Origin: Chloroflexota bacterium
GTDB lineage: Bacteria; Chloroflexota; Anaerolineae; Aggregatilineales; J027
DNA length: 48,548 bases
Direction of reading: 5' to 3'
Assembly (NCBI GenBank): GCA_003697365.1
Contig: RFGP01000077.1
Span: forward strand, 1-48,548
Positions 839 to 29,075 of this stretch are shown here, one piece after another. The translations under genes were made by a program, and so were the position numbers. The notes under the pieces are model-generated. The model did not search any database and was not told the DNA's origin. It was given only the letters and a program-made list of their open reading frames with translations. Numbering within the stretch: the stretch's first letter is position 1; the number at the start of each line of letters is the position of its first letter.

Positions 839-3800
839 TTAAATGCGTTTAATAGCGAGCTTCAGCGTTTCCCCATCAAGTTCTAATGTCTCGATTCTGT
901 CGGCATCGTCATATAATGAGCTTTGCCATACTTCAGCGAGTGTTTCGCCCATAATGTAGTCTTTATGCACTTCTAGTGCTTTCTCAGCTTGGCCTTTTGC
1001 TTCATAAGAAAGTGCAATGCGATCACTGAGATCGTAATTGGCATCCTTACGCATATTTTGAATCGCTCGCACAATCTCACGTGCATAACCTTCTAGGATC
1101 AAATCTTCTGTTAGCTCTGTGGTCAGTGCTGCCATATAACCATGATCAGCAGCGACTGCGTAGCCTTCTTGCCCACTTTGGCTAACAATGACTTGTTCGG
1201 CTGAAAGAGAAAATGTCTTGCCATTTACTGATACTTCAATTGATTCGCCACTGAGTAAGGCTTCTCCCCATTGGCGTGCTTGTTCACCTTCAGCACTGAC
1301 GATTGCTTGCCGCACGGCGGGGAAATCGCCGCGCAATTCACGCCCTAAAGTGTCAATGGGCTTGAGCGAATAATTGACCATGCCCGCACTACTTGCTAGA
1401 TCAAGCACGCGCACTTGCTTGACGTTTAATTCATCGGCAATCATATCTGTTAGTTGCAGGATTTGCTCTGGGTCTTCATCAGAAGGCAGACCAAAACTCA
1501 CTTCTTTAAGTGGTTGACGAACTTTTAGCTTAGCATTGTTGCGTGCGGCGTGCCCTAAACTAACTACGCGCTTGACAACAGCCATTTGATGATTCAGTTT
1601 TGGATTAATCAGTGCTTCATCAAATTCTGGCCACATCGCGAGATGCACACTTCTGCTTTCATCGCCTTCTGTTGATAGGTTACGGTATATCGCTTCTGAC
1701 AAGAAAGGCATGGTTGGGGCCAATAATTTAGCAATCGTCAACAAACACTCATAAAGTGTCTGATAGGCCGCCAATTTATCTTGGCTATTATCGTTTTGCC
1801 AAAAGCGCCGCCGTGAACGACGAAGATACCAATTGCTTAAATTATCAACAAAACCTTCTATTGGTCGTGTTGCGCCTAGCACATCATAAGTTTCATAGGC
1901 TTGGGTTACATCACGTACAAGTGTATGTAACTCGCTAAGAATCCATTGATCGAGGAGATCGCGTTCAGCAACAGGAATTAAAGGCGTTTGAGGATCAAAT
2001 TGATCGACGTTGGCATACGATACGAAGAAGCTGTAAACATTCCACAAAGTCAAATAAAAGTTACGCAAAACTTCAGTGATGCCGGGAATGTCTTTGTTGC
2101 CTTTATTGTCATAACGCCAGCCAAAACGCTTTTGATCGCCCGGTTGGCTTGCTGTGAACATATACCAGCGCATAGCGTCTGCCCCATATTTTTCGATAAC
2201 TTCCCATGGGGAAACGGTGTTGCCTCGACTCTTCGACATTTTGCTGCCATCATCAGCCATAATATGACCTAGACAGATCACATTCTTATAAGCAACAGAG
2301 TCAAATACCATTGTTGCAATGGCATGTAGGCTATAGAACCATCCGCGCGTTTGATCCACAGCTTCACAAATATAGTCTGCGGGGAATTGTTCTTTGAAGA
2401 TTTCTTGATTATGTCGTGGGTATCCCCATTGAGCAACAGGCATCGCACCACTATCGAACCACACATCAATCACTTCTGGTACGCGGCGCATTGTTACGGT
2501 TTTACCGTTAACGGTTTCTTGCCAAGTGATCTCATCAACATAAGGGCGATGTAAATCTAGATCGCTAAGATCGCGGCCCACTTTTTGTGATAATTCTTCT
2601 ACACTGCCGATGCAAACAGCATAGTCAACTTCAGGATCATCAGCTACCCAAACTGGCAAAGGCGTTCCCCAATAACGCTCGCGTCCTAATGCCCAATCTT
2701 TAACATCGGCTAACCAGTTTCCGAAGCGTCCTTCTTTTACATGCTCAGGCACCCAGTTGATGGTTTGATTGAGTTCGACAAGTCGATCACGAAAATCTGT
2801 GGTGCGGATGAACCAAGTATCACGTGCAAGATACATCAATGGGGTTTTGTCGCGCCAATTATGAGGGTAATTGTGCTTATATTTGGTGAGATGGAAGACA
2901 AGCCCACGTTCACGTAAATCGCGTGCGATCACGTCATCCGCATCTTTAAACCACATACCCGCCACCAATGTAACTTCATCTTTAAACGTGCCATCAGAAT
3001 TTACAGTGACGATCACGGGTAAGTCATATTTTTGGGCGGAGGCCATGTCATCTACACCAAAGGCAGGTGCTGTATGAACAATCCCTGTACCATCTTCAAT
3101 GCTTACATAATCCGCAGCAATAATGCGATAGGCCTTGTCTTCATCTACTGGGAAGAAAGTATAAAGCGGTTCATAGCGTCGACCGACAAGGGCTTCACCC
3201 TTCATCTCAGCGACCACTTCATACCCACCATCTTCTTGAACAACTGGCCCAAGAACTTGTTCCACAAGGTTTTTGGCAAGATATAAATATTCTTCGGGGG
3301 CATCAGCTGACACTCGCCCTTTTAGTTTTACGTAATCAATATCGGCCCCTACTGCAAGTGCAACATTTGCGGGCGTTGTCCATGGGGTTGTTGTCCAACC
3401 AAGATAGTAGGTATTTTCTTCATCAACCGCTTTGAAGCGGATATAGATGCTTGGGTCTTCAATTTCTTCATAACCTAATGCAACCTCATGGCTAGAAAGT
3501 GCTGTTCCGGACGTAGGAGAATAGGGCACGACCTTATAGCCTTTATAGAGAACACCCTTATCCCACAGTTGGCGCAACAGCCACCACACGCTCTCAATAT
3601 AATCATTGGTCAATGTGGCATAAGCGTTTTCTAGATCAACCCAAAATGCGATGCGTTCAGTGAGTTCATTCCATTCTTTGATATAGGTGAAAACACTTTC
3701 ACGGCATTTAGCATTGAATTCTGCGATACCATAGCGTTCAATTTCGCTTTTTTGTTTGATGCCTAGTTGTTTTTCTACTTCAATTTCAACAGGCAGACCG

Positions 3801-4063
3801 TGAGTGTCCCAGCCGCCTTTGCGCAAGACGTAGTAGCCACGCATTGTGCGATAGCGCGGAAACATATCTTTAAACGAGCGTGCTAGAACGTGGTGACTGC
3901 CCGGCCGACCATTTGCTGTTGGGGGGCCTTCATAAAATACGTAGCGCGGCCCAGATTCCCTTTCGTGCATAGTACGTCGAAAAATATCATGTGCTTTCCA
4001 AAAAGAGAGGACTTCTTCCTCTAAGGCAGTAATATTGACATTCGGTGATACCGACTTGAACAT
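839..4063 (-). CDS. ileS: isoleucine--tRNA ligase, type 2 (IleRS2)
   Basis: YEGPPTANG followed by GSHH (HIGH-equivalent), GWDTHGLPVE, WTTTPWT editing motif, GTGIVHTAPAFG, DQTRGWFYSL, KMSKS; long type-2 C-terminus; RBS AAGGAGG. Confidence 0.97.
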   Translation of the reverse strand: MFKSVSPNVNITALEEEVLSFWKAHDIFRRTMHERESGPRYVFYEGPPTANGRPGSHHVLARSFKDMFPRYRTMRGYYVLRKGGWDTHGLPVEIEVEKQLGIKQKSEIERYGIAEFNAKCRESVFTYIKEWNELTERIAFWVDLENAYATLTNDYIESVWWLLRQLWDKGVLYKGYKVVPYSPTSGTALSSHEVALGYEEIEDPSIYIRFKAVDEENTYYLGWTTTPWTTPANVALAVGADIDYVKLKGRVSADAPEEYLYLAKNLVEQVLGPVVQEDGGYEVVAEMKGEALVGRRYEPLYTFFPVDEDKAYRIIAADYVSIEDGTGIVHTAPAFGVDDMASAQKYDLPVIVTVNSDGTFKDEVTLVAGMWFKDADDVIARDLRERGLVFHLTKYKHNYPHNWRDKTPLMYLARDTWFIRTTDFRDRLVELNQTINWVPEHVKEGRFGNWLADVKDWALGRERYWGTPLPVWVADDPEVDYAVCIGSVEELSQKVGRDLSDLDLHRPYVDEITWQETVNGKTVTMRRVPEVIDVWFDSGAMPVAQWGYPRHNQEIFKEQFPADYICEAVDQTRGWFYSLHAIATMVFDSVAYKNVICLGHIMADDGSKMSKSRGNTVSPWEVIEKYGADAMRWYMFTASQPGDQKRFGWRYDNKGNKDIPGITEVLRNFYLTLWNVYSFFVSYANVDQFDPQTPLIPVAERDLLDQWILSELHTLVRDVTQAYETYDVLGATRPIEGFVDNLSNWYLRRSRRRFWQNDNSQDKLAAYQTLYECLLTIAKLLAPTMPFLSEAIYRNLSTEGDESRSVHLAMWPEFDEALINPKLNHQMAVVKRVVSLGHAARNNAKLKVRQPLKEVSFGLPSDEDPEQILQLTDMIADELNVKQVRVLDLASSAGMVNYSLKPIDTLGRELRGDFPAVRQAIVSAEGEQARQWGEALLSGESIEVSVNGKTFSLSAEQVIVSQSGQEGYAVAADHGYMAALTTELTEDLILEGYAREIVRAIQNMRKDANYDLSDRIALSYEAKGQAEKALEVHKDYIMGETLAEVWQSSLYDDADRIETLELDGETLKLAIKRI

Positions 4064-6960: not shown

Positions 6961-7440
6961 TCACTTCAACCGATACCAAAAATGATCGATAAATTCAGAG
7001 GCTCCCTTAGCTCGCCAAAATGCTTGTGCCATAGGGTGCAAATGCATAACCGCCACTTCTACTACTTTAATGTCTTGGGCAAGGAACCACTCTCGCATTG
7101 GGTTCAGCAGTGCCGTTCCTACGCCGCCAACATGAGCATGGCCATCAACACCCAGTTCGGCAATGTAGCCATATTTTTGTTGATAGTAGAATAATGGGCG
7201 TTCAAGAATAAGGCCGATCATAAATCCAATAATACGACTGTCTTTTTCTGCTATTAAGACGTGTGCAGCGGGGTCATCTAACCATGTATGAACTTGTTGC
7301 CGCCATAATTGCGGTGCATGAGATGTTATCCGCAAGCGCGGGTCCATCGTGGTTGCGATTTCATCCATAATGTCCGCCCACAATCCCTCTAACTGTTCTA
7401 GATCAGGGTGCATCGCGGGCCGTACTTGAAACGATGCCAT
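6961..7440 (-). CDS. GNAT family acetyltransferase
   Basis: IAELGVD..HVGGVGTALL motif A and AQAFWRAKG. ATG at 7440 follows GAAGGAG; the ORF-track start at 7470 lies inside the T-box terminator. Confidence 0.85.
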   Translation of the reverse strand: MASFQVRPAMHPDLEQLEGLWADIMDEIATTMDPRLRITSHAPQLWRQQVHTWLDDPAAHVLIAEKDSRIIGFMIGLILERPLFYYQQKYGYIAELGVDGHAHVGGVGTALLNPMREWFLAQDIKVVEVAVMHLHPMAQAFWRAKGASEFIDHFWYRLK

Positions 7441-7468
7441 ATCGTTTATTTGCTCCTTCGTTACCATC

Positions 7469-7503
7469 AAAAAAGCTCCCGTCCTTCAAGGGACGAGAGC
7501 TTT
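7469..7503 (-). terminator. T-box terminator hairpin
   Basis: AAAGCTCTCGTCC-cttgaa-GGACGGGAGCTTTTTT; mutually exclusive with the antiterminator AGGG-TGGAACC-GCGAGA...TCTCGT-CCCT. Confidence 0.9.
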
Positions 7504-7728
7504 CGGTCTCGCGGTTCCACCCTAGATTCTTCGTACCTAGTAGAAGTGTACGAAGCACTCAGGTCACTAAGATAACGGTCTAGTCGCCGCCGACGCTTAC
7601 TAGCGCAACAACGCGCGTTCGGGTCGGAACTCCGAAAGGATAACCAACAACCGTACTATGCTAGGCTTACACCGTCCCTAGCTCGCTGAAATAGCCATTA
7701 GGTTTGTTGGTCGTGTTTTCATCATCGT
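7469..7728 (-). promoter_or_regulatory. T-box riboswitch (transcriptional attenuator), probable Ile (AUC) specifier
   Basis: On the minus strand: Stem I with CAGCGAG AG-bulge and a GGTG-containing apical loop, ATC at 7641-7639, Stem II with GAA/AGTA, GACCGTTAT, Stem III, T-box AGGGTGGAACCGCG (7523-7510), and an overlapping terminator with a U6 tail. Confidence 0.92.
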
Positions 7729-7751
7729 TTTTTTGGTTCTATATGGTTTTT

Positions 7752-7780
7752 ATTCTAAATGAGAGATGTCTTACAGGCAA
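7752..7780 (-). promoter_or_regulatory. sigma70-type promoter for the T-box leader
   Basis: TTGCCT-17 nt-TAGAAT on the minus strand, about 25 nt upstream of Stem I. Confidence 0.7.
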
Positions 7781-7930
7781 TATCTTTTGGGCATTAAATT
7801 TTAGGGAAAGTGTTTTTGAGGTATTTTTTCGGTACAATACATTATTAGTAACTTGCATAGTTGATGTAAAATGGATGAAGCATTAAACCCTTGAGTTGTC
7901 TTTACAGAATAAGACAGGATGATTTAACTC

Positions 7931-10084
7931 ATGTCGTTATTGAAATACGTTGTGTGTCGTAATTGTGGGCATAAAATGCCCCCTGATCCACTAACTAAAA
8001 AATGTGATCAATGTGAAGGGCAATGGCTCATTGCAGAGTATGATCTCGAACAGGCAAAAGAAATTTGGCGTTCTGATGCTTTTCAAGGGCGGGAACTATC
8101 CTTATGGCGTTATATGGAGTTATTGCCTACTTCAGACCCGGGATTTGATGTTTCTATGGGGGAAGGCTGGACTCCTCTAGTGAAAGCGGCTCGTCTGCAG
8201 CAAGAATTAGGGTTGGCGAATTTATGGATCAAAGATGAGCGTCAAAGCCCAACGGGATGTTTCAAGGATCGGCAAGCTGTTTTGAATATTGCTCACTATA
8301 AAAAAGTGGGTATTGAAGAGGTGGTGTTGGCTTCAACAGGAAACAAAGCGACAGCTTTTGCGGCATATTGCGCGCGTGCCAATATTCGCGCATGGGTTTT
8401 TTTAACCAGTGCTGTGCCTAACGAAAAATTAAGAGAATTAGGACTTTATGGGGCTGAGGTTGTCAAAATCGCTGGCACCTATGATCAAGCCAAGCAAGTT
8501 GCTAAAGATTTTGCGGCACGTCGTAATTTATTACTAGAGGGAGGAGCCAAAAGCATCTTAAGCCAAGATGGCATGAAAACCCTTGCTTTTGAAATTGCCG
8601 AACAGCTAGCACGTTATGCACCTGTTGAAGATGGAAAATGGCGTGCTCCTGACTGGTACATTCAAGCGGTAAGTGGTGGCATCGGCCCAATAGCAGTTTG
8701 GCAAGGGTTTAAGGAACTGTTGGCTATGGGGCTGATAGATCGCTTGCCCAAGATTGGCGTAGTGCAAGTTGAGGGATGTGCACCAATGGTAACGGCGTGG
8801 CAACAAGACCTAGAAGAAGCTGAGCCTGTGGTGCCACGTACAAGAATTGCGGTATTGGCAACAGGTGACCCCGGACAAGGCTATAAAATATTGCGTCAAG
8901 CCTGCAAGGAAGGTGGCGGTACGATGATCTCAGTGAGTGATGGCGAAACATTTCGCGCGATGCGTCGCCTAGCACGGGTAGAAGGATATAGCATGGAACC
9001 CGCCACTGCGGTTGCTTTTGCTGGGCTTGAAAAATTGGTGCAAGAGGGGCTTATCCAAACTGATGACTATGTAGTAGTTAATTGTTCTGGACATACTTTC
9101 CCCGCAGAAAAACATGTTCTAGAGGATCAGTATGTTCTTGACTTGCAGTTAGGACAATTAGACGAGGATACGCAAGCAGTTTCGCACCGCAGTATTGAAG
9201 AAGGCATTGAGTCTGCTCTTGCTACGCTTGATGAACAAGTTACTACTGTTGTGATTATTGATGATAACCCTCAAGATAGCCGACTTATTCGGCGTTTGCT
9301 TCAAACCTATAAGAATTATCGTGTTTTTGAGGCGAATGACCCACGCGATGGCTTCGAGTTGATTAAGCAGCGTAAACCCGATCTTATTGTGACGGATTTA
9401 ACTATGCCTGATATGGATGGCTTTGAGCTGATCGATGCTTTGAAGCAAGACCCTAATGTTCGTGATATTCCGGTTGTTGTCATCTCTGCAAAAACGTTGA
9501 CCCCAGAAGAGCGCCAAAAACTGGAAAGCCAAACAGAATCACTTTGGCAAAAGGGCAGTTTTAATACACGAGAACTGGTCGATCATGTCGTGAAAACTTT
9601 GGGCGTAGAAAATGGGGAAGAAATACCTTCTGAAGATACCCCCGTCACAACTACAGTTGGGAAGATTGCTAGTGGAGTGCAACAGGTTATTGAGCAAATA
9701 ACCCCTTCTACAGTTATGGTAATCGATGATAACCGACGCGATGCGCGTCTTGTGCGGCGTATTCTTGAGGCAACGAAGCGCTATCATGTCATTGAAGCCT
9801 ATACAGCTGAGGAGGGCCGTCAGCTAATTGACGAACATCACCCACGTTTAGTAGTCTTGGATATACTATTACCTGATTTAAATGGGCTCGATTTCTTAGC
9901 TCAATTACGCCAAAACGAGAAACATAAGCAATTGCCTGTCGTAATTTTAACGGCTAAGGAATTAACAGCTGACGAACGAGAGCGCTTTGAAAAACTGAAT
10001 TGTTCAATTTGGTATAAGCTCCAATTAGATCGTCAACAATTGGTGGAGCATGTCGACAAGATTATAAATATGCTTAAGTCATAA
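7931..10084 (+). CDS. threonine-synthase-like PLP enzyme (fold type II) fused to two C-terminal receiver domains
   Basis: N-terminal CxxC...CxxC, SLWRYMELLP, SMGEGWTPL, PTGCFKDR (PLP Lys), ASTGN, MEPATAVAFAGL. REC1: IIDD, VTDLTMPDMDG, ISAK. REC2: VIDD, VLDILLPDLNG, LTAK. Confidence 0.9.
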   Translation: MSLLKYVVCRNCGHKMPPDPLTKKCDQCEGQWLIAEYDLEQAKEIWRSDAFQGRELSLWRYMELLPTSDPGFDVSMGEGWTPLVKAARLQQELGLANLWIKDERQSPTGCFKDRQAVLNIAHYKKVGIEEVVLASTGNKATAFAAYCARANIRAWVFLTSAVPNEKLRELGLYGAEVVKIAGTYDQAKQVAKDFAARRNLLLEGGAKSILSQDGMKTLAFEIAEQLARYAPVEDGKWRAPDWYIQAVSGGIGPIAVWQGFKELLAMGLIDRLPKIGVVQVEGCAPMVTAWQQDLEEAEPVVPRTRIAVLATGDPGQGYKILRQACKEGGGTMISVSDGETFRAMRRLARVEGYSMEPATAVAFAGLEKLVQEGLIQTDDYVVVNCSGHTFPAEKHVLEDQYVLDLQLGQLDEDTQAVSHRSIEEGIESALATLDEQVTTVVIIDDNPQDSRLIRRLLQTYKNYRVFEANDPRDGFELIKQRKPDLIVTDLTMPDMDGFELIDALKQDPNVRDIPVVVISAKTLTPEERQKLESQTESLWQKGSFNTRELVDHVVKTLGVENGEEIPSEDTPVTTTVGKIASGVQQVIEQITPSTVMVIDDNRRDARLVRRILEATKRYHVIEAYTAEEGRQLIDEHHPRLVVLDILLPDLNGLDFLAQLRQNEKHKQLPVVILTAKELTADERERFEKLNCSIWYKLQLDRQQLVEHVDKIINMLKS

Positions 10085-10135
10085 GTAGAAGCGAAATGCT
10101 TTGTTATGTACTTCGGTTGAAAGTTGAGAAGGATT

Positions 10136-10504
10136 ATGCCAAAACGCATTTTGTATGTTGAAGATAACTTACACAATAAACGCTTGGTCAGAAAAATCTT
10201 GCAGTCACGTGGGTATGAAGTTTTAGAAGCCGAAGATGGACATACTGGCGTTGAAATGGCAATGTCAGAATTACCTGATCTGATCTTGATGGATATAAAT
10301 ATTCCCGGCCTTGATGGTATTGAGGCCACGCGCATGATTAAGGCCTATCAGCAAACAGCGCATATACCAATTATTGCCTTAACTGCAAATGCAATGCGTG
10401 GAGATCGGGAACGTTTTATATCAGCAGGATGTGATGACTATTTACCCAAACCCATCAGTACGGCAGATTTGCTGGCATTAGTGAAACAATATTTGAGCGA
10501 ATAA
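10136..10504 (+). CDS. single-domain response regulator (DivK/CheY-like)
   Basis: ILYVEDN, DLILMDINIPGLDG, IIALTANAMRGD, DYLPKP; ATG at 10136 after GAAGGA. Confidence 0.93.
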   Translation: MPKRILYVEDNLHNKRLVRKILQSRGYEVLEAEDGHTGVEMAMSELPDLILMDINIPGLDGIEATRMIKAYQQTAHIPIIALTANAMRGDRERFISAGCDDYLPKPISTADLLALVKQYLSE

Positions 10505-10645: not shown

Positions 10646-12160
10646 ATGCTTCAACGTCGCTCTCATTATATCTTGATAGCTGCGTTTTGCGTTTTGGCGC
10701 TTGTGGCGACTGGGAGCACGGCTTGGCTCGCGACTCCGTCACAAGCTCTTGCCCAACAAGGCCCCATTTGTGGAATTGGGCTTTGGGATACACAATATTA
10801 TAACAACACCGTTTTTAGCGGAGCTACGCAAACATTTTGTACTACGAGTAACCAATTGAATTTAGGCCTTAATTGGGGGGCAGCAGGGCCTATTGCTGGC
10901 GTAGGGCCAGATAATTGGTCAGCAAGTTTTGTGACAAATTTGTCGTTTGCAACTGCTGGTACCTATCGTTTCACAACTACCTATCAAGATGGGGTACGTT
11001 TGTACGTAAACGGCCAGCTAATTATTAACGCAATAACCACGGATGTTGCGACTTCACAGACAACCACAGGTGATTTTTTCTATAGCTTGGCAGGAAGCAC
11101 AGTTCCAGTTCGTTTGGAATATGTGAATTTTACTGGCAATGCAAATGTGAGCTTAAATTGGTCACTTGTGCAAGGTGGGGGTGGCACGGGCCAAACAGGT
11201 GGTGGCAACCCATGGACAACGGAATACTTCAATAACCGCACATTTACTCCTCCTAGCATTATTGGGGCCACTTTTCCTGCGGGGCCGCTCGCGGTTGATT
11301 TTGGCTTTAATGCTCCTGCACCGGGTGTGGCTGCAGATAATTGGTCTGGACGCTATACACGTGTAGTGAATTTCCCAACTGGTGGCGTGGTGAATTTTGA
11401 GGCGCGCGCTGATGATACTGTAACCGTGTACGTCAACGGTACTCCTGTTACTGCTTCAGCACCTTATTTTGCGGGTGAAGGCGTTGTTTATCGTGGCTCA
11501 ATTACCGTTCCAGCGGGCTTGAGTACAATTGTCGTGGAACATACAGATATTGTTGCTCAGGCTTATGTATATGTGAGCTGGTCTGGCGGTGGCGATACTA
11601 GCGGTGGTGGTTCAACAAGTGGTGGCGGAACTACTGGGGTTACATCTCCGACGGGGGTTACGGCCACAGTCAATACAAGTGTGTTGAACGTGCGAGATGC
11701 GCCTAGCCTTTCTGGGCAACGTCTTACTCAAATTCGACGCAACGAAGTATACGCTGTATTAGGTAAAAATAGCGCAGGTACATGGGCACTCTTGCAAGTT
11801 GGTGATATACAAGGATGGTCATTTGCACAATATTTGACCTTTAGCGGTGATTTTAATAGTGTGCCCGTAGCTGATGGTTCTGACCAAACGCCCGCACCTA
11901 GTGGGGATATTATCGGGCAGGGCCGCCCTGTTGGTAATATGCGCGTGCGAGAATGTCCCAGTTTCAGCTGCAAGAACTTAGGTTTTGTCCCTTGGGGAGA
12001 TACCGTAGGGATTTATGGCCAAAGTGCAGATGGCCGTTGGATCAAGATTCAATATGTGACCGCAAGCGGTGAGGTGCTAGTAGGGTGGTCATATAAGATT
12101 TGGTATCGTACCCTCAATAGTCTGGAAGAACCGCTTCCACAATTCCCTGTTGTGAATTAA
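10646..12160 (+). CDS. secreted protein with 2x PA14 and 2x bacterial SH3 domains
   Basis: Signal peptide; PA14 motifs DNWSASF..YQDGVRLYVNG and DNWSGRY..ADDTVTVYVNG; Gly/Thr linkers; SH3 motifs LNVRDAPS..GW and MRVRECPS..GRWIKI..GW. Confidence 0.85.
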   Translation: MLQRRSHYILIAAFCVLALVATGSTAWLATPSQALAQQGPICGIGLWDTQYYNNTVFSGATQTFCTTSNQLNLGLNWGAAGPIAGVGPDNWSASFVTNLSFATAGTYRFTTTYQDGVRLYVNGQLIINAITTDVATSQTTTGDFFYSLAGSTVPVRLEYVNFTGNANVSLNWSLVQGGGGTGQTGGGNPWTTEYFNNRTFTPPSIIGATFPAGPLAVDFGFNAPAPGVAADNWSGRYTRVVNFPTGGVVNFEARADDTVTVYVNGTPVTASAPYFAGEGVVYRGSITVPAGLSTIVVEHTDIVAQAYVYVSWSGGGDTSGGGSTSGGGTTGVTSPTGVTATVNTSVLNVRDAPSLSGQRLTQIRRNEVYAVLGKNSAGTWALLQVGDIQGWSFAQYLTFSGDFNSVPVADGSDQTPAPSGDIIGQGRPVGNMRVRECPSFSCKNLGFVPWGDTVGIYGQSADGRWIKIQYVTASGEVLVGWSYKIWYRTLNSLEEPLPQFPVVN

Positions 12161-12165
12161 TACTG

Positions 12166-12196
12166 AGAGGCTTGGGCATGTTTTGCTCAAGCCTCT
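12166..12196. terminator. intrinsic terminator between convergent genes
   Basis: AGAGGCTTGGGCA-tgttt-TGCTCAAGCCTCT followed by a T-rich tract. Confidence 0.8.
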
Positions 12197-12203
12197 TTGG
12201 TTT

Positions 12204-19682: not shown

Positions 19683-20516
19683 TTATTGCGGAGTTGGTGG
19701 TCGATGGGGCTTTATGGGCGCTTGATTCGATTTAGTACTGCCAGTATTAGATTCCTCATCTGTTACTGATTTATTTTCTGTAGAAGGACTTGCTTCTGTT
19801 TTCTCTTCTTTGGCAACCTCAGGTTCACTAGATTTTGCGCTTGATGAAGAGGTTTTTTCCTCCTCTGCTGATTTACCGTTACTTTTGTCGCCTTTATCAA
19901 CAGCTTCTGGCTTTGTTTTTGTGTCTTCAGTAGCTGTTGGCGCTGATGTTGATTTTGGTGTTTCAGGTGTTTCAGGCGTTAAAGGTTTAGCAGATTCGCT
20001 TGCTTGTGTTGTTGCCGTTGTATCTACTGGCGCTGATGTTGCTTTTGGTGTTTCTTGAGCTTTGGGCTTTTCCGCCGTCGATACAGGTTGTTTATCTTCT
20101 GGTGATGTTTCAGTTGATGGTGGAGGGGTATGATTAGTTTTGGCTTGTTTCTTTTGCTGAATATCGTTAATTACGTCTGTAAGCAGATCTATATTGATCG
20201 GCTTATGTACAACATGATCAGCGCCCACTTCTTTACGACGATCTTCTAAATCTAGCGCATCATAAGCTGTGACAAAGATTATCGGCAAATCCTTTAATGT
20301 TTGATGTTCGCGCATCATCCGACATAGCTGAAAACCATCAAGTTGTGGCATCATGATGTCTAAGAGAGCGACATCTACTTGTTCTATCTCTGCAAGTGTG
20401 ATGGCTTCGGTTGAATTTAACGTTGTAACGGGCTCAAACCCTGTTAATTCTAACAAAACACGTAACAAGTTGAGCGTATCTAATTCATCATCTACGACAA
20501 GTACTTTGGTAGCCAT
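19683..20516 (-). CDS. response regulator receiver with about 150-aa low-complexity C-terminal tail
   Basis: VLVVDD, LLDIMMPQLDG, FVTA, HKP; tail rich in T/P/S/E/K with no recognisable output domain. Confidence 0.88.
   Translation of the reverse strand: MATKVLVVDDELDTLNLLRVLLELTGFEPVTTLNSTEAITLAEIEQVDVALLDIMMPQLDGFQLCRMMREHQTLKDLPIIFVTAYDALDLEDRRKEVGADHVVHKPINIDLLTDVINDIQQKKQAKTNHTPPPSTETSPEDKQPVSTAEKPKAQETPKATSAPVDTTATTQASESAKPLTPETPETPKSTSAPTATEDTKTKPEAVDKGDKSNGKSAEEEKTSSSSAKSSEPEVAKEEKTEASPSTENKSVTDEESNTGSTKSNQAPIKPHRPPTPQ
19938..20054. repeat. 27-bp direct repeat within the response regulator tail
   Basis: TGGCGCTGATGTTG(A/C)TTTTGGTGTTTC at 19938-19964 and 20028-20054; one mismatch, 90-bp period; encodes ETPK(A/S)TSAP. 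Confidence 0.85.
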
Positions 20517-24531: not shown

Positions 24532-25863
24532 ATGTTTAAAGAATCTCAACTTAATTATCTTTCTGCATTGATTGAGGCTCGTACAGGCTTAGATACTTTT
24601 ACACGCTATCGTCAGACTTTGATTGAGGCTCTGCAACAGGATCATATCGAAAATTTAGATGCCTATATCGCCCATTTAGAATTACTAGATCATAGCCATC
24701 CTGTTTGGCAAGCATTGCTGAATGATTTAATAATTGGCGAAACATATTTTATGCGAGATCAGCAGCAAATCTCATTACTGCGAGAGCTGGTCTTACCTGC
24801 TATTATCCAACAAAAACGACATACTACACGCCAAATACGTATATGGAGTGCTGGTTGCGCTACTGGCGAAGAAGCCTATACGCTCGCCATTTTGCTTTAT
24901 GAGTTGCTACCCGATCATAACAAGTGGGATATTTTGATTTTAGGAACGGATATTAATTGGGCAGCAATTCAGGTAGCACAAAAAGGAATTTATAAAGCGT
25001 GGTCTTTTCGTAATACTACCCCTACTTTTCAGCAAAAATATTTTATTCCACGCGCGAATGCCTATGAAATTCGCTCAGATTTGCGTCATAACGTGCGTTT
25101 TGAGCAGGCCAACCTTGTTAGTGTGAATGTGCCGCAGCAAGATTTAATTGTATGCCGTAATGTTTTATTTTACTTTACCCCTTCGCAGGCAGCAGTGGCT
25201 GAAAAACGTTTACTCCAATGCTTACAACCAAGCGGTTGGCTTTTGCTAAGTCCAGCAGAAACGCTACATCACACACGCCAACATTTTGAGATTCATACTC
25301 ATGCGCAAACGATAGTTTTTCGTAGGCGCGCAGAATCAACAACTTCAGCCTCATATCTCCCTCAACCGCTAATCCAAAACCTAGAAGATATTTATCAATC
25401 TGCTGTAGAGGCTTTTCAAACGCATCAATTTGAACTTGCGGAAATTTACTTAAATCAAATTAGTCACTTACAGATACCGAAGATTGCGTGTCTACAAGCA
25501 AGTTTGGCATTGAGCAAGGGCGACTGGGATGGTGCGAGGGTAAAACTAAATGAAACGCTTCATCTTGATCCTTTTTGGGCAGAAGCGCATTATTTGTTGG
25601 GATTGTGGCATATTCACCACGATGATCTTATTGCGGCATACACATCGCTACGCGCCGCAATTTATAGCGAACCTCGTTTTGCACTAGCATATTTGCTAAA
25701 GGGCGACTTAATGATGAAGCAGGGTGATTATAATCGGGCAACGCGCGCTTGGGAAACCGCACGACAGCTGGCGTTGGCCTTCGATATAAATGCTTATCTC
25801 AGCGATATTGCTGACGTAACCGCAGGGCAGCTTATTAATTTAGTTGAACATCGCTTGAATTAG
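24532..25863 (+). CDS. cheR: CheR-type methyltransferase with C-terminal TPR
   Basis: IGETYFMRD, RIWSAGCATGEEAYTLA, ILGTDIN, DLIVCRNVLFYF; TPR region AEAHYLLG. Confidence 0.9.
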   Translation: MFKESQLNYLSALIEARTGLDTFTRYRQTLIEALQQDHIENLDAYIAHLELLDHSHPVWQALLNDLIIGETYFMRDQQQISLLRELVLPAIIQQKRHTTRQIRIWSAGCATGEEAYTLAILLYELLPDHNKWDILILGTDINWAAIQVAQKGIYKAWSFRNTTPTFQQKYFIPRANAYEIRSDLRHNVRFEQANLVSVNVPQQDLIVCRNVLFYFTPSQAAVAEKRLLQCLQPSGWLLLSPAETLHHTRQHFEIHTHAQTIVFRRRAESTTSASYLPQPLIQNLEDIYQSAVEAFQTHQFELAEIYLNQISHLQIPKIACLQASLALSKGDWDGARVKLNETLHLDPFWAEAHYLLGLWHIHHDDLIAAYTSLRAAIYSEPRFALAYLLKGDLMMKQGDYNRATRAWETARQLALAFDINAYLSDIADVTAGQLINLVEHRLN

Positions 25864-28301: not shown

Positions 28302-29075
28302 ATGCTTCAAAATCGATTTAGTATTTATACAGTAGGCTTGTTGCTATTTTTCGCGGGGTTGGCATGTTCATTGGTTCCAGACGGAACGGTGACCGATGAT
28401 CAGCGCCTTGTGCGCCCTGAGCGGCCAGCGCTTTTGTTGTTAACGCCACAGCAAGGAAGTCGGTATGCATTAGGCACACCGGTTATTTTCCATGCTATCG
28501 CTCAAGATGCGGTTGGGATCAATCGCTTAGAGGTTCACATCGATCAACCTGAAACGCCACTTGTTCTGACGCACGTCATTGATCCACCAGCTACTGAAGT
28601 GGAGGTGTTGTTGCCTTGGATGCCACCTAATAGCCAACTCTATCTAATTAGCGTTTTAGCTTTTCGTGAGGCAGGATCGCCCTCTGATCCAAGTGATGAT
28701 ATTCCGAGTAATGAAATCTTACTTTCAATAGATGTGCTGCCAAGTAGCCAAGTTGCGCCACCACCTCCCTTTACTCCAGAAGTTGTGCCCAGCTCTACTA
28801 TAACCGTTGATAATGCGCTACCATCGATAAGCGCAGTCATTACCAGCACTGACTCTGTCCTTGTGCGGCAAGGGCCGGGCATACAATATCAAGCTGTACA
28901 AACACTCAATAATGGCGATATTTTGTCTGTTGTGGGGCGTAGCGAAGATGGTATTTGGCTGGTGATAGAACTGCCAAATGGTTTTGGATGGATTATTCGG
29001 GAGGCTGTCGTTTTGAATGGCGCAATTGAAGATTTAGCGGTTGTTGCTGCGCCTCCCTTAACAGAAAATGAGTAA
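28302..29075 (+). CDS. lipoprotein with Ig-like and SH3 domains
   Basis: Lipobox GLAC; AIAQDAVGINRLEV (Ig-like); VLVRQGPGIQY..VVGRSEDGIWL..GWI (SH3). Confidence 0.8.
   Translation: MLQNRFSIYTVGLLLFFAGLACSLVPDGTVTDDQRLVRPERPALLLLTPQQGSRYALGTPVIFHAIAQDAVGINRLEVHIDQPETPLVLTHVIDPPATEVEVLLPWMPPNSQLYLISVLAFREAGSPSDPSDDIPSNEILLSIDVLPSSQVAPPPPFTPEVVPSSTITVDNALPSISAVITSTDSVLVRQGPGIQYQAVQTLNNGDILSVVGRSEDGIWLVIELPNGFGWIIREAVVLNGAIEDLAVVAAPPLTENE

Follow-up and report, generated by a model that had tools for sequence, protein, structure and literature searches.

A putative response regulator with an N-terminal threonine synthase-like pyridoxal phosphate domain and C-terminal receivers in a Chloroflexota bacterium

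A gene in a 48,548-nucleotide (nt) contig of a Chloroflexota bacterium (RFGP01000077.1, assembly GCA_003697365.1), referred to at its full length as the window, encodes a protein of 717 amino acids (aa) in which a Zn-ribbon and a pyridoxal phosphate (PLP) domain of the threonine synthase (ThrC) fold are followed in the same chain by two receiver domains, REC1 and REC2. We lean towards the view that this protein is a two-component response regulator with the N-terminal ThrC-fold PLP enzyme as its output, and that it is not the threonine synthase of the cell. The fused protein would then probably put an amino-acid reaction under the direct control of a sensor kinase. Phosphorylation of the fused protein, the direction of its control, its catalysis, and its substrate are what we infer below from comparison of the gene with its relatives.

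Architecture, conservation, and distribution of the fused protein

The gene occupies positions 7931..10084 of the plus strand as a single uninterrupted frame with no in-frame stops. By open reading frame (ORF) calling, Pfam, and AlphaFold2 we located, from the N terminus, the Zn-ribbon, the ThrC-fold PLP domain, REC1, and REC2, in agreement with an initial annotation of this DNA that had described a ThrC-like PLP enzyme continuing in frame into two receivers. The Zn-ribbon (7955..8017, plus strand, as are all features of this gene), recognized by conservation of its four Cys residues (C9, C12, C25, and C28), is followed by a PALP domain of fold-type II at residues 74-387 (8150..9091; Pfam score 215 bits, cut-off 35). 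Its PLP lysine, K112 (8264-8266), lies within TGCFKDRQ and aligned with the lysine in the FKDR of ThrC; the motifs STGNK and NCSGH were present at residues 135-139 and 384-388. Pfam assigned two stretches of the protein to Response_reg (130.4 bits, cut-off 30.2), and Pfam, conservation, and the structural model placed REC1 at residues 438-558 (9242..9604) and REC2 at residues 590-717 (9698..10081), matching the coordinates previously claimed for them. The acidic pair, phospho-acceptor Asp, Ser/Thr, and Lys that had been reported in both receivers could all be located: the complete phospho-site of REC1 consists of D444, D445, D489 (9395-9397), S519, and K541, and that of REC2 of D599, D600, D644 (9860-9862), T674, and K696. 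In neither sequence is the phospho-site Lys followed by Pro. As both receivers hold intact phospho-sites, the possibility that they are pseudo-receivers lacking the aspartate was rejected.

The AlphaFold2 model, for which the input was a 76-row family alignment, had a mean predicted local distance difference test score (pLDDT) of 81.7 and a predicted template modeling score (pTM) of 0.61. It comprised three confident modules (residues 1-390, 436-558, and 590-717), the latter two being (beta-alpha)5 folds with strand-helix alternation at 438-556 and 593-716 and pLDDT mostly above 80; the linkers at 391-435 and 559-589 had pLDDT below 50. The first linker begins with residues 391-405 (..PAEKHVLEDQYVLDL; 9101..9145), a segment of low model confidence that showed the top conservation of the whole protein.

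A contig of 9741 nt from a second sample, which came from the same study as the probable source sample, spanned positions 7700-10061, including both junctions, with 0 differences; a stop or misassembly at the junction was thereby ruled out as far as sequence data allow. Short contigs from two more sequencing runs, one of them from a different study, covered 9052-9269 and 8942-9217 in the region of the PLP/REC1 junction, and all of the runs listed as containing the stretch were hot-spring metagenomes, with no RNA run among them. An 11.5-kilobase (kb) contig from the probable source sample (run X1, record 2) matched only 8573-8598 and 10148-10167, with 1475 other letters between them, and is most simply explained as a paralogue or as a related gene from some other organism.

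A clustered-protein search returned at least 120 clusters, every one listed with PALP and Response_reg. Nearly all of the matches listed covered the full length at 53-84% identity, and the named sources among them were Anaerolineae, Aggregatilinea lenta, 'Thermofonsia', and other Chloroflexota. In a set of 116 rows, consisting of the window protein and 115 of the 119 other listed hits (680-760 aa), K112, D444, D445, D489, S519, K541, D600, D644, and K696 were invariant, and N138 was retained in 116/116 rows; position 599 was D in 113 rows and E in 3, and position 674 was T in 106 and S in 10. In the 76-row alignment, C9 and C28 of the Zn-ribbon were invariant and C12 and C25 at least 90% conserved; S135, G137, the residues S248, G250, and G252 of the 248-252 loop, and the NCSGHT motif at 384-389 were also invariant. 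These alignments indicate that the PLP cofactor site is under selection. Measured as majority-residue frequency, conservation stood at 0.82 in REC1, 0.77 in the PLP core, and 0.59 in REC2; residues 391-405 averaged 0.95, the helix at 424-437 ahead of REC1 reached 0.88, and the two linkers lay at about 0.3. REC1 was the best-conserved module, with its beta5-alpha5 face at 0.85 and on that face an invariant Trp539, two residues ahead of Lys541. REC2, on the other hand, kept its phospho-site while the remainder varied.

The architecture is not a singular oddity but belongs to a large family, seen more often with one receiver than with two. We surveyed 301 genomes of the class, sampled evenly, and scored as a match any alignment with E <= 1e-120 that ran from the PLP domain into REC1; the genomes sampled are related to one another, and counts across them are therefore not independent. 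The fused form was found in 82 of the 301 genomes (66 of 217 high-quality genomes, 46 of 176 genera), and its presence was all-or-none per family (for example, 8/8, 10/10, and 6/6 as against 0/10, 0/10, and 0/9); the window's own order had it in 10/10 genomes. In a survey of the phylum it occurred in 40 of 401 genomes, 8 of which belong to two families that lie outside the class. The majority of copies, about 550-565 aa long, carry a single receiver. The two-receiver form was present in 13 of the 301 genomes, and eight of these 13, among them the genome of the window (G000), also hold a one-receiver paralogue. A look-up in the Atlas, made with a 59%-identical homologue of the window protein, gave 12 clusters that combine PALP with Response_reg and have 50 or more members each, and a single-protein search for related loci gave 6 full-length matches among 80, the others matching the receivers alone.

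In a tree built from the PLP domain only, 18 two-receiver proteins and one 564-aa record formed one clade with a support of 96 in the SH-like approximate likelihood ratio test (SH-aLRT); in a FastTree run on all columns, the support for the two-receiver clade was 98. Among 12 receiver sequences compared, the best relative of REC2 was REC1 (38.5% identity, 105 bits), which points to a derivation of REC2 by internal duplication of REC1, and internal duplication is therefore favored over capture of the downstream receiver. One protein of 844 aa, P0059, combines the PLP domain with three receivers. In P0137, a 492-aa fragment, a single chain runs from HATPase_c straight into the PLP domain; it represents either a genuine fusion with a kinase or the product of read-through in gene calling.

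The PLP domain compared with threonine synthase and related enzymes

The closest solved relatives of the protein by sequence were bacterial threonine synthases (150 bits, E 7.5e-43), and the top Foldseek matches were again threonine synthases, with template modeling scores (target) of 0.80-0.84 and identities of 30-32%; the next-best solved neighbor was the cysteate synthase CapA2 of Alistipes finegoldii (9K3C). The score against TIGR00260 was 151.6 bits, below its cut-off of 167.1, and that against the best NCBIfam model, NF006050 'threonine synthase', was 285.3 bits, below its cut-off of 303. In a scan of all of G000, the four best hits included just one below the threonine synthase cut-off, the window gene. 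Membership in the cysteate synthase family TIGR03844 also failed (131.8 bits against a cut-off of 324.9).

We compared motifs with three solved ThrC sequences, taken from printed alignments, and with the canonical ThrC of G000. The PLP-binding elements FKDR, S-T-G-N, and (S/T)GH were shared with ThrC, as is the fold, which is common to the window protein and the short bacterial enzymes (Thermus thermophilus 1UIM/1V7C, Aquifex 2ZSJ, B. subtilis 6CGQ, and M. tuberculosis 2D1F). The window protein differs from these enzymes in about 310 additional C-terminal residues with two receivers and in three places within the PLP domain: the (L/V)NS.NP.R.EGQKT loop of true ThrCs, which carries N154, S155, and R160, is replaced by EGG.AKSILSQDGMKT, the GNxGN loop is replaced by SGGIGP, and the residue following STGN, T88 in ThrC, is Lys (K139). 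The canonical motifs were also present in P0163, P0186, P0259, and P0266. Deviation from typical ThrC at TGCFKDR, STGNK, and NCSGH, already noticed in the initial annotation, was confirmed, but its extent had been understated, for the NS..NP.R and GNxGN loops are replaced as well. The replaced motifs were common to the fused proteins and a handful of unfused relatives, which together formed a clade whose unfused members include P0126, P0128, P0130, P0133, P0134, and P0142 and which stands apart from canonical ThrC with a support of 99 (21 rows). Because the loop bearing NS..NP.R and the GNxGN loop have both been replaced, 'ThrC' is here the label of a fold and not a likely activity, and we conclude that the PLP domain is probably not a threonine synthase.

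A separate canonical thrC, for which a search had been advised, was found in G000 on contig C158, beside pheA and cmk; its product scored 261 bits, above the cut-off, and has an equivalent CxxC...CxxC. The same genome carries thrB on contig C142 and hom on contig C118. With canonical thrC, thrB, and hom elsewhere in G000, threonine synthesis is therefore independent of the window gene, and the identification of that gene as the housekeeping thrC was rejected.

In an alignment of 162 rows, Lys139 occurred without Arg or Lys at position 204 in 96 rows and together with one of them in 7; where Lys139 was lacking, Arg or Lys stood at position 204 in 45 rows and was absent in 14. A 'charge swap' between the two positions was considered and rejected: Lys139 has a single origin on the tree, which leaves one independent pair, and the swap is without statistical weight because Lys139 arose once. 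Arg204 in most of the family, and Lys139 in the subclade of the window protein, would suggest accommodation of an anionic group. Cysteate synthase CapA2 is a ThrC-like PLP enzyme with an altered substrate, evidence that this fold can serve reactions besides threonine synthesis; the window protein differs from it (61 bits to 9K3C, 24% identity), and cysteate synthase has no receivers.

Additional domains occurred in other ThrC-like proteins. Members of other ThrC-like clades carry LeuA_dimer (P0165, P0173, and P0212; 611-633 aa) or PadR (P0185; 499 aa) at the equivalent C-terminal end, so a C-terminal regulator is a recurring design on this fold and not the anomaly that it had appeared to be. 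Threonine deaminase IlvA and cystathionine beta-synthase, which are fold-type II enzymes, likewise have the catalytic domain first and the regulator last, flexibly linked. The regulators of IlvA, cystathionine beta-synthase, and the LeuA_dimer and PadR proteins bind small molecules or DNA; that of the window protein, in contrast, would be a phosphorylation switch. P0250 (571 aa) is a ThrC-like protein with an N-terminal RNase H / RVT_3 domain.

Candidate partner kinase and gene neighborhood

The window had been described as lacking hom, thrB, and histidine kinase genes, and we found no hom, thrB, or histidine-kinase domain in the 35 of its 47 ORFs of at least 100 aa that we scanned, the other 12 being ORFs that overlap longer ones in other frames. 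Gene neighborhoods were compared at 36 related loci, of which the class search supplied 29, named genome records supplied 6, and G000 itself one, the paralogue; L093 and L110, which were missed by the motif filter, were included by hand. A HisKA-HATPase_c kinase gene lay directly upstream on the same strand in 26 of the 36 (8 of the 15 loci with two receivers and 18 of the 21 with one), and these upstream kinases nearly always had GAF and often one or two C-terminal receivers. Three of the ten loci without an upstream kinase have less than 800 nt of upstream sequence; in the other seven the upstream gene encodes a solute-binding protein (L009, L013, and L113), AMMECR1 (L108), a REC-cyclase (L097), or a product of no or weak family assignment (L090 and L092). 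Downstream, the next gene encodes a receiver-only protein in 10 of the 36 loci, as it does in the window, a REC-HisKA-HATPase_c kinase in 7, a REC-GAF protein in 1, an EamA transporter in 10 (convergently oriented in three), and a second PALP (ThrC-like) protein in 4 (L094, L095, L096, and L114), where it runs off the fetched stretch; in the remaining 4 nothing was assignable. No Hpt domain was found in any neighboring protein scanned. Characterized EamA members export amino acids and their relatives, and the EamA neighbors suggest that a small molecule is moved across the membrane.

By orthology, a candidate partner could be recognized in G000. When a kinase linked to a two-receiver gene in the same order was compared with G000, its best match was a GAF-HisKA-HATPase_c kinase of 480 aa on contig C207 (L124; 5714-7156, minus strand), with 52% identity and 431 bits, the next match having 262 bits. 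In 4/4 genomes tested, the C207 kinase and the kinase next to the two-receiver gene were reciprocal best hits, and in three of the four the second-best hit of the C207 kinase was the kinase beside the one-receiver paralogue. From these reciprocal best hits it follows that the kinase and regulator were separated in this lineage, and that the C207 kinase is the candidate partner. It is an orphan kinase whose gene begins 2 nt inside the end of the contig and converges with a gene of the histone-deacetylase family. The link to phosphotransfer signaling that had been proposed from the window is thus strengthened by the GAF-HisKA-HATPase_c kinase that adjoins the gene in 26 of the 36 loci and by the orthologue kept on C207.

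The gene for the stand-alone receiver begins 40 nt past the fused gene. It runs on the plus strand from a TTG at 10124 to 10504 (126 aa), or from an ATG at 10136, which would give 122 aa; the ATG is preceded by GAGAAGGA, and 122 aa is the length of the orthologues in L008, L009, and L013, so that the ATG is the likelier start. A receiver had been noted at this place, and it proved to be a complete REC (Pfam, 98.1 bits). Orthologues lie directly downstream of the fused gene in L009 (73% identity), L091 (63%), and L104 (47%), and the REC of the downstream REC-HisKA-HATPase_c kinase shares 45% identity with the stand-alone receiver. The next gene, at 10646..12160 on the plus strand, encodes a protein in which Pfam recognized PA14 (two stretches) and SH3_3, with an N-terminal hydrophobic leader; it is also next in L009 and L013, the linkage being kept in the closest relatives only, and it may be co-transcribed with the fused gene. 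The sole long terminator-like hairpin of the region (14 pairs, 12165-12197) follows it, and an intergenic hairpin at 10070-10135 was no better than shuffled sequences (z -1.1).

The one-receiver paralogue of G000 is ThrC-like with one receiver, has 545 aa, and is 49% identical to the window protein; it lies at 334-1968 of contig C189 (L002) and is followed after 11 nt by an EamA transporter gene (1980-2972). The contig begins 333 nt upstream of the paralogue. A dispersed repeat of about 90 nt gave 32 matches in G000, with copies at positions 1-90 of L002 and at C106:9332-9421; several copies are 96-100% identical and lie at contig ends, and the repeat probably explains many of the assembly breaks in this genome. 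The copy on C189 is about 250 nt upstream of the paralogue, and that on C106 stands just after the gene for a multi-GAF hybrid kinase with an open frame of 2260 aa, of which the 1003 residues read carry one C-terminal receiver. This kinase was considered as the upstream neighbor of the C189 paralogue and rejected; the sequence shared by the two contig ends, in opposite orientation, is the dispersed repeat, and adjacency cannot be deduced from it because it occurs at many contig ends.

Other features of the window were as follows. A T-box leader on the minus strand at 7486-7734 (Rfam 93.0 bits, exactly the gathering score; E 3.6e-19) sits between the ThrC-like gene and a divergent GNAT gene (6961-7470). 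Past it, co-oriented on the minus strand, lie the GNAT gene, genes for two TPR proteins, two unassigned ORFs, and an isoleucyl-tRNA synthetase-like gene (839-4063), so that a distance of about 3.4 kb with five ORFs separates the T-box from the synthetase gene; the specifier region of the T-box contains a possible AUC (Ile), in a part of the alignment that is of low confidence. Elsewhere in the window there are genes for a second bacterial SH3-domain protein (28302-29075, Pfam), a response regulator of 277 aa whose C-terminal half has no Pfam match (19683-20516, minus strand), and a CheR methyltransferase with TPR repeats (24532-25863, plus strand); apart from CheR, no chemotaxis genes were seen in the window.

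Proposed mechanism, alternatives, and significance

We propose that a cytoplasmic GAF histidine kinase, in G000 the unlinked C207 orthologue, would phosphorylate REC1 at D489, and that phospho-REC1 would alter the activity of the PLP domain by way of its beta5-alpha5 face and segments 391-405 and 424-437. The change might be exerted through the oligomeric state of the enzyme or through access to the active site. REC2, as a presumed later internal duplicate of REC1, and the downstream single-domain receiver may provide extra phospho-acceptors, whether to receive a second input or to shape the response as a sink for phosphate; both keep the phospho-site while the rest drifts, which fits auxiliary acceptors. 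The substrate would be an amino acid different from O-phosphohomoserine and would probably carry an anionic group in its side chain. A bolder extension, which we regard as distinctly doubtful, is that the PLP enzyme, gated by phospho-aspartate, makes or destroys an amino acid-derived molecule moved by EamA, so that in filamentous Anaerolineae a GAF kinase would control a diffusible metabolite or signal and the two receivers would integrate two phospho-inputs.

Several observations weigh against a phosphorylation-controlled enzyme. There is no adjacent kinase in the window or in its closest long relatives, L009 and L013 (65-66% identity), which have the same arrangement as the window, with the receiver and PA14-SH3 genes downstream and no kinase upstream, and phosphorylation of the window protein is accordingly proposed from orthology only. 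Docking of REC1 on the enzyme was not predicted by AlphaFold2, because confidence in both linkers was low and the pTM was only 0.61. The residues T88, N154, S155, and R160 are ones that we take to hold the substrate phosphate in T. thermophilus ThrC, and a protein in which the canonical phosphate-binding motif is gone might equally have ceased to be catalytic. Finally, the conserved PLP-binding residues are to be expected equally of a PLP-dependent sensor.

The last point leads to the alternative that we find possible, if unlikely: the ThrC-fold domain would be a PLP-dependent ligand sensor, in which an amino acid bound as external aldimine alters the handling of phosphate by the receivers, and the protein would feed metabolic information into the surrounding circuit of kinase, receiver, and receiver-kinase. 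There is precedent for reuse of a PLP fold as a sensor in the MocR/GabR regulators, in which an aminotransferase-like PLP domain senses a ligand, but that domain is of fold-type I, is joined to a DNA-binding domain, and involves no phosphotransfer. A sensor would fit the position of the gene, which in most loci lies between an upstream kinase and a downstream receiver or receiver-kinase, the place of a modulator or shuttle; it would fit the loss of the catalytic phosphate site of ThrC, the existence of forms with one, two, and three receivers (three in P0059), and the pattern in REC2, where the phospho-site alone is retained and the rest drifts (0.59), as for an intermediary or sink. However, no Hpt was found in the scanned neighbors, and a classical multistep relay through the receivers would therefore be without a carrier. 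Conservation is high across the whole PLP core (0.77), the other ThrC-like proteins that end in a regulator resemble regulated enzymes, and the EamA small-molecule transporter that adjoins the gene in 10 of the 36 loci is a better fit to a substrate or product.

We consider it quite improbable that the protein is a true additional threonine synthase with an activity adjusted by two-component signaling, in the way that S-adenosylmethionine adjusts the plant enzyme. The window protein does come near the cut-off of NF006050 (285.3 bits against 303), its best solved relatives by both sequence and fold are threonine synthases, and several sources label its homologues 'threonine synthase'. Those names are automatic, however, and the protein falls below the curated cut-offs of both NF006050 and TIGR00260, has ..EGG.AKSILSQDGMKT and SGGIGP in place of NS.NP.R.EGQKT and GNxGN, and belongs to a clade separate from the canonical enzymes. 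The chance that the fusion is an artefact of assembly or gene calling, or a decaying gene, is vanishingly small: although the genome is a 220-contig metagenome draft, the second-sample contig agrees without a difference over 7700-10061, the frame is free of stops, the functional residues are all conserved, and the full architecture recurs in at least 120 protein clusters and the fused form in 82 of 301 genomes.

Response regulators with enzymatic outputs include the CheB, PleD, RpfG, and RssB/PP2C types, and the chemistry of these outputs is that of cyclic-nucleotide turnover, methylesterase, or phosphatase. The fused protein resembles these types in that a receiver with a complete phospho-site is joined to an enzyme and, in the related loci, is encoded beside a histidine kinase; it differs from them in that the output of the window protein is a PLP enzyme and is N-terminal, the receivers being C-terminal. 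This catalytic-first, regulator-last order is unusual for response regulators and usual for this enzyme fold. A full-text literature search, the coverage of which left out most subscription journals, gave no description of a ThrC or PALP domain fused to a receiver, in keeping with the statement in the initial annotation that no characterized ThrC-REC-REC was known; public databases hold the architecture under the automatic names 'pyridoxal-phosphate dependent enzyme' and 'threonine synthase'. As a response regulator with a PLP enzyme output, the protein would add to a known kind of system both a new type of output and a new order of domains.

The family marks a ThrC-like clade to which automatic annotation gives the name 'threonine synthase', and offers a natural case in which to study control by a receiver of a domain N-terminal to it. 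It is a large, unstudied family in filamentous Chloroflexota, inherited family by family, and the existence of a defined partner kinase makes it experimentally tractable once one member has been expressed. A PLP amino-acid enzyme as output, if true, would extend two-component control directly to the chemistry of amino acids and metabolites.

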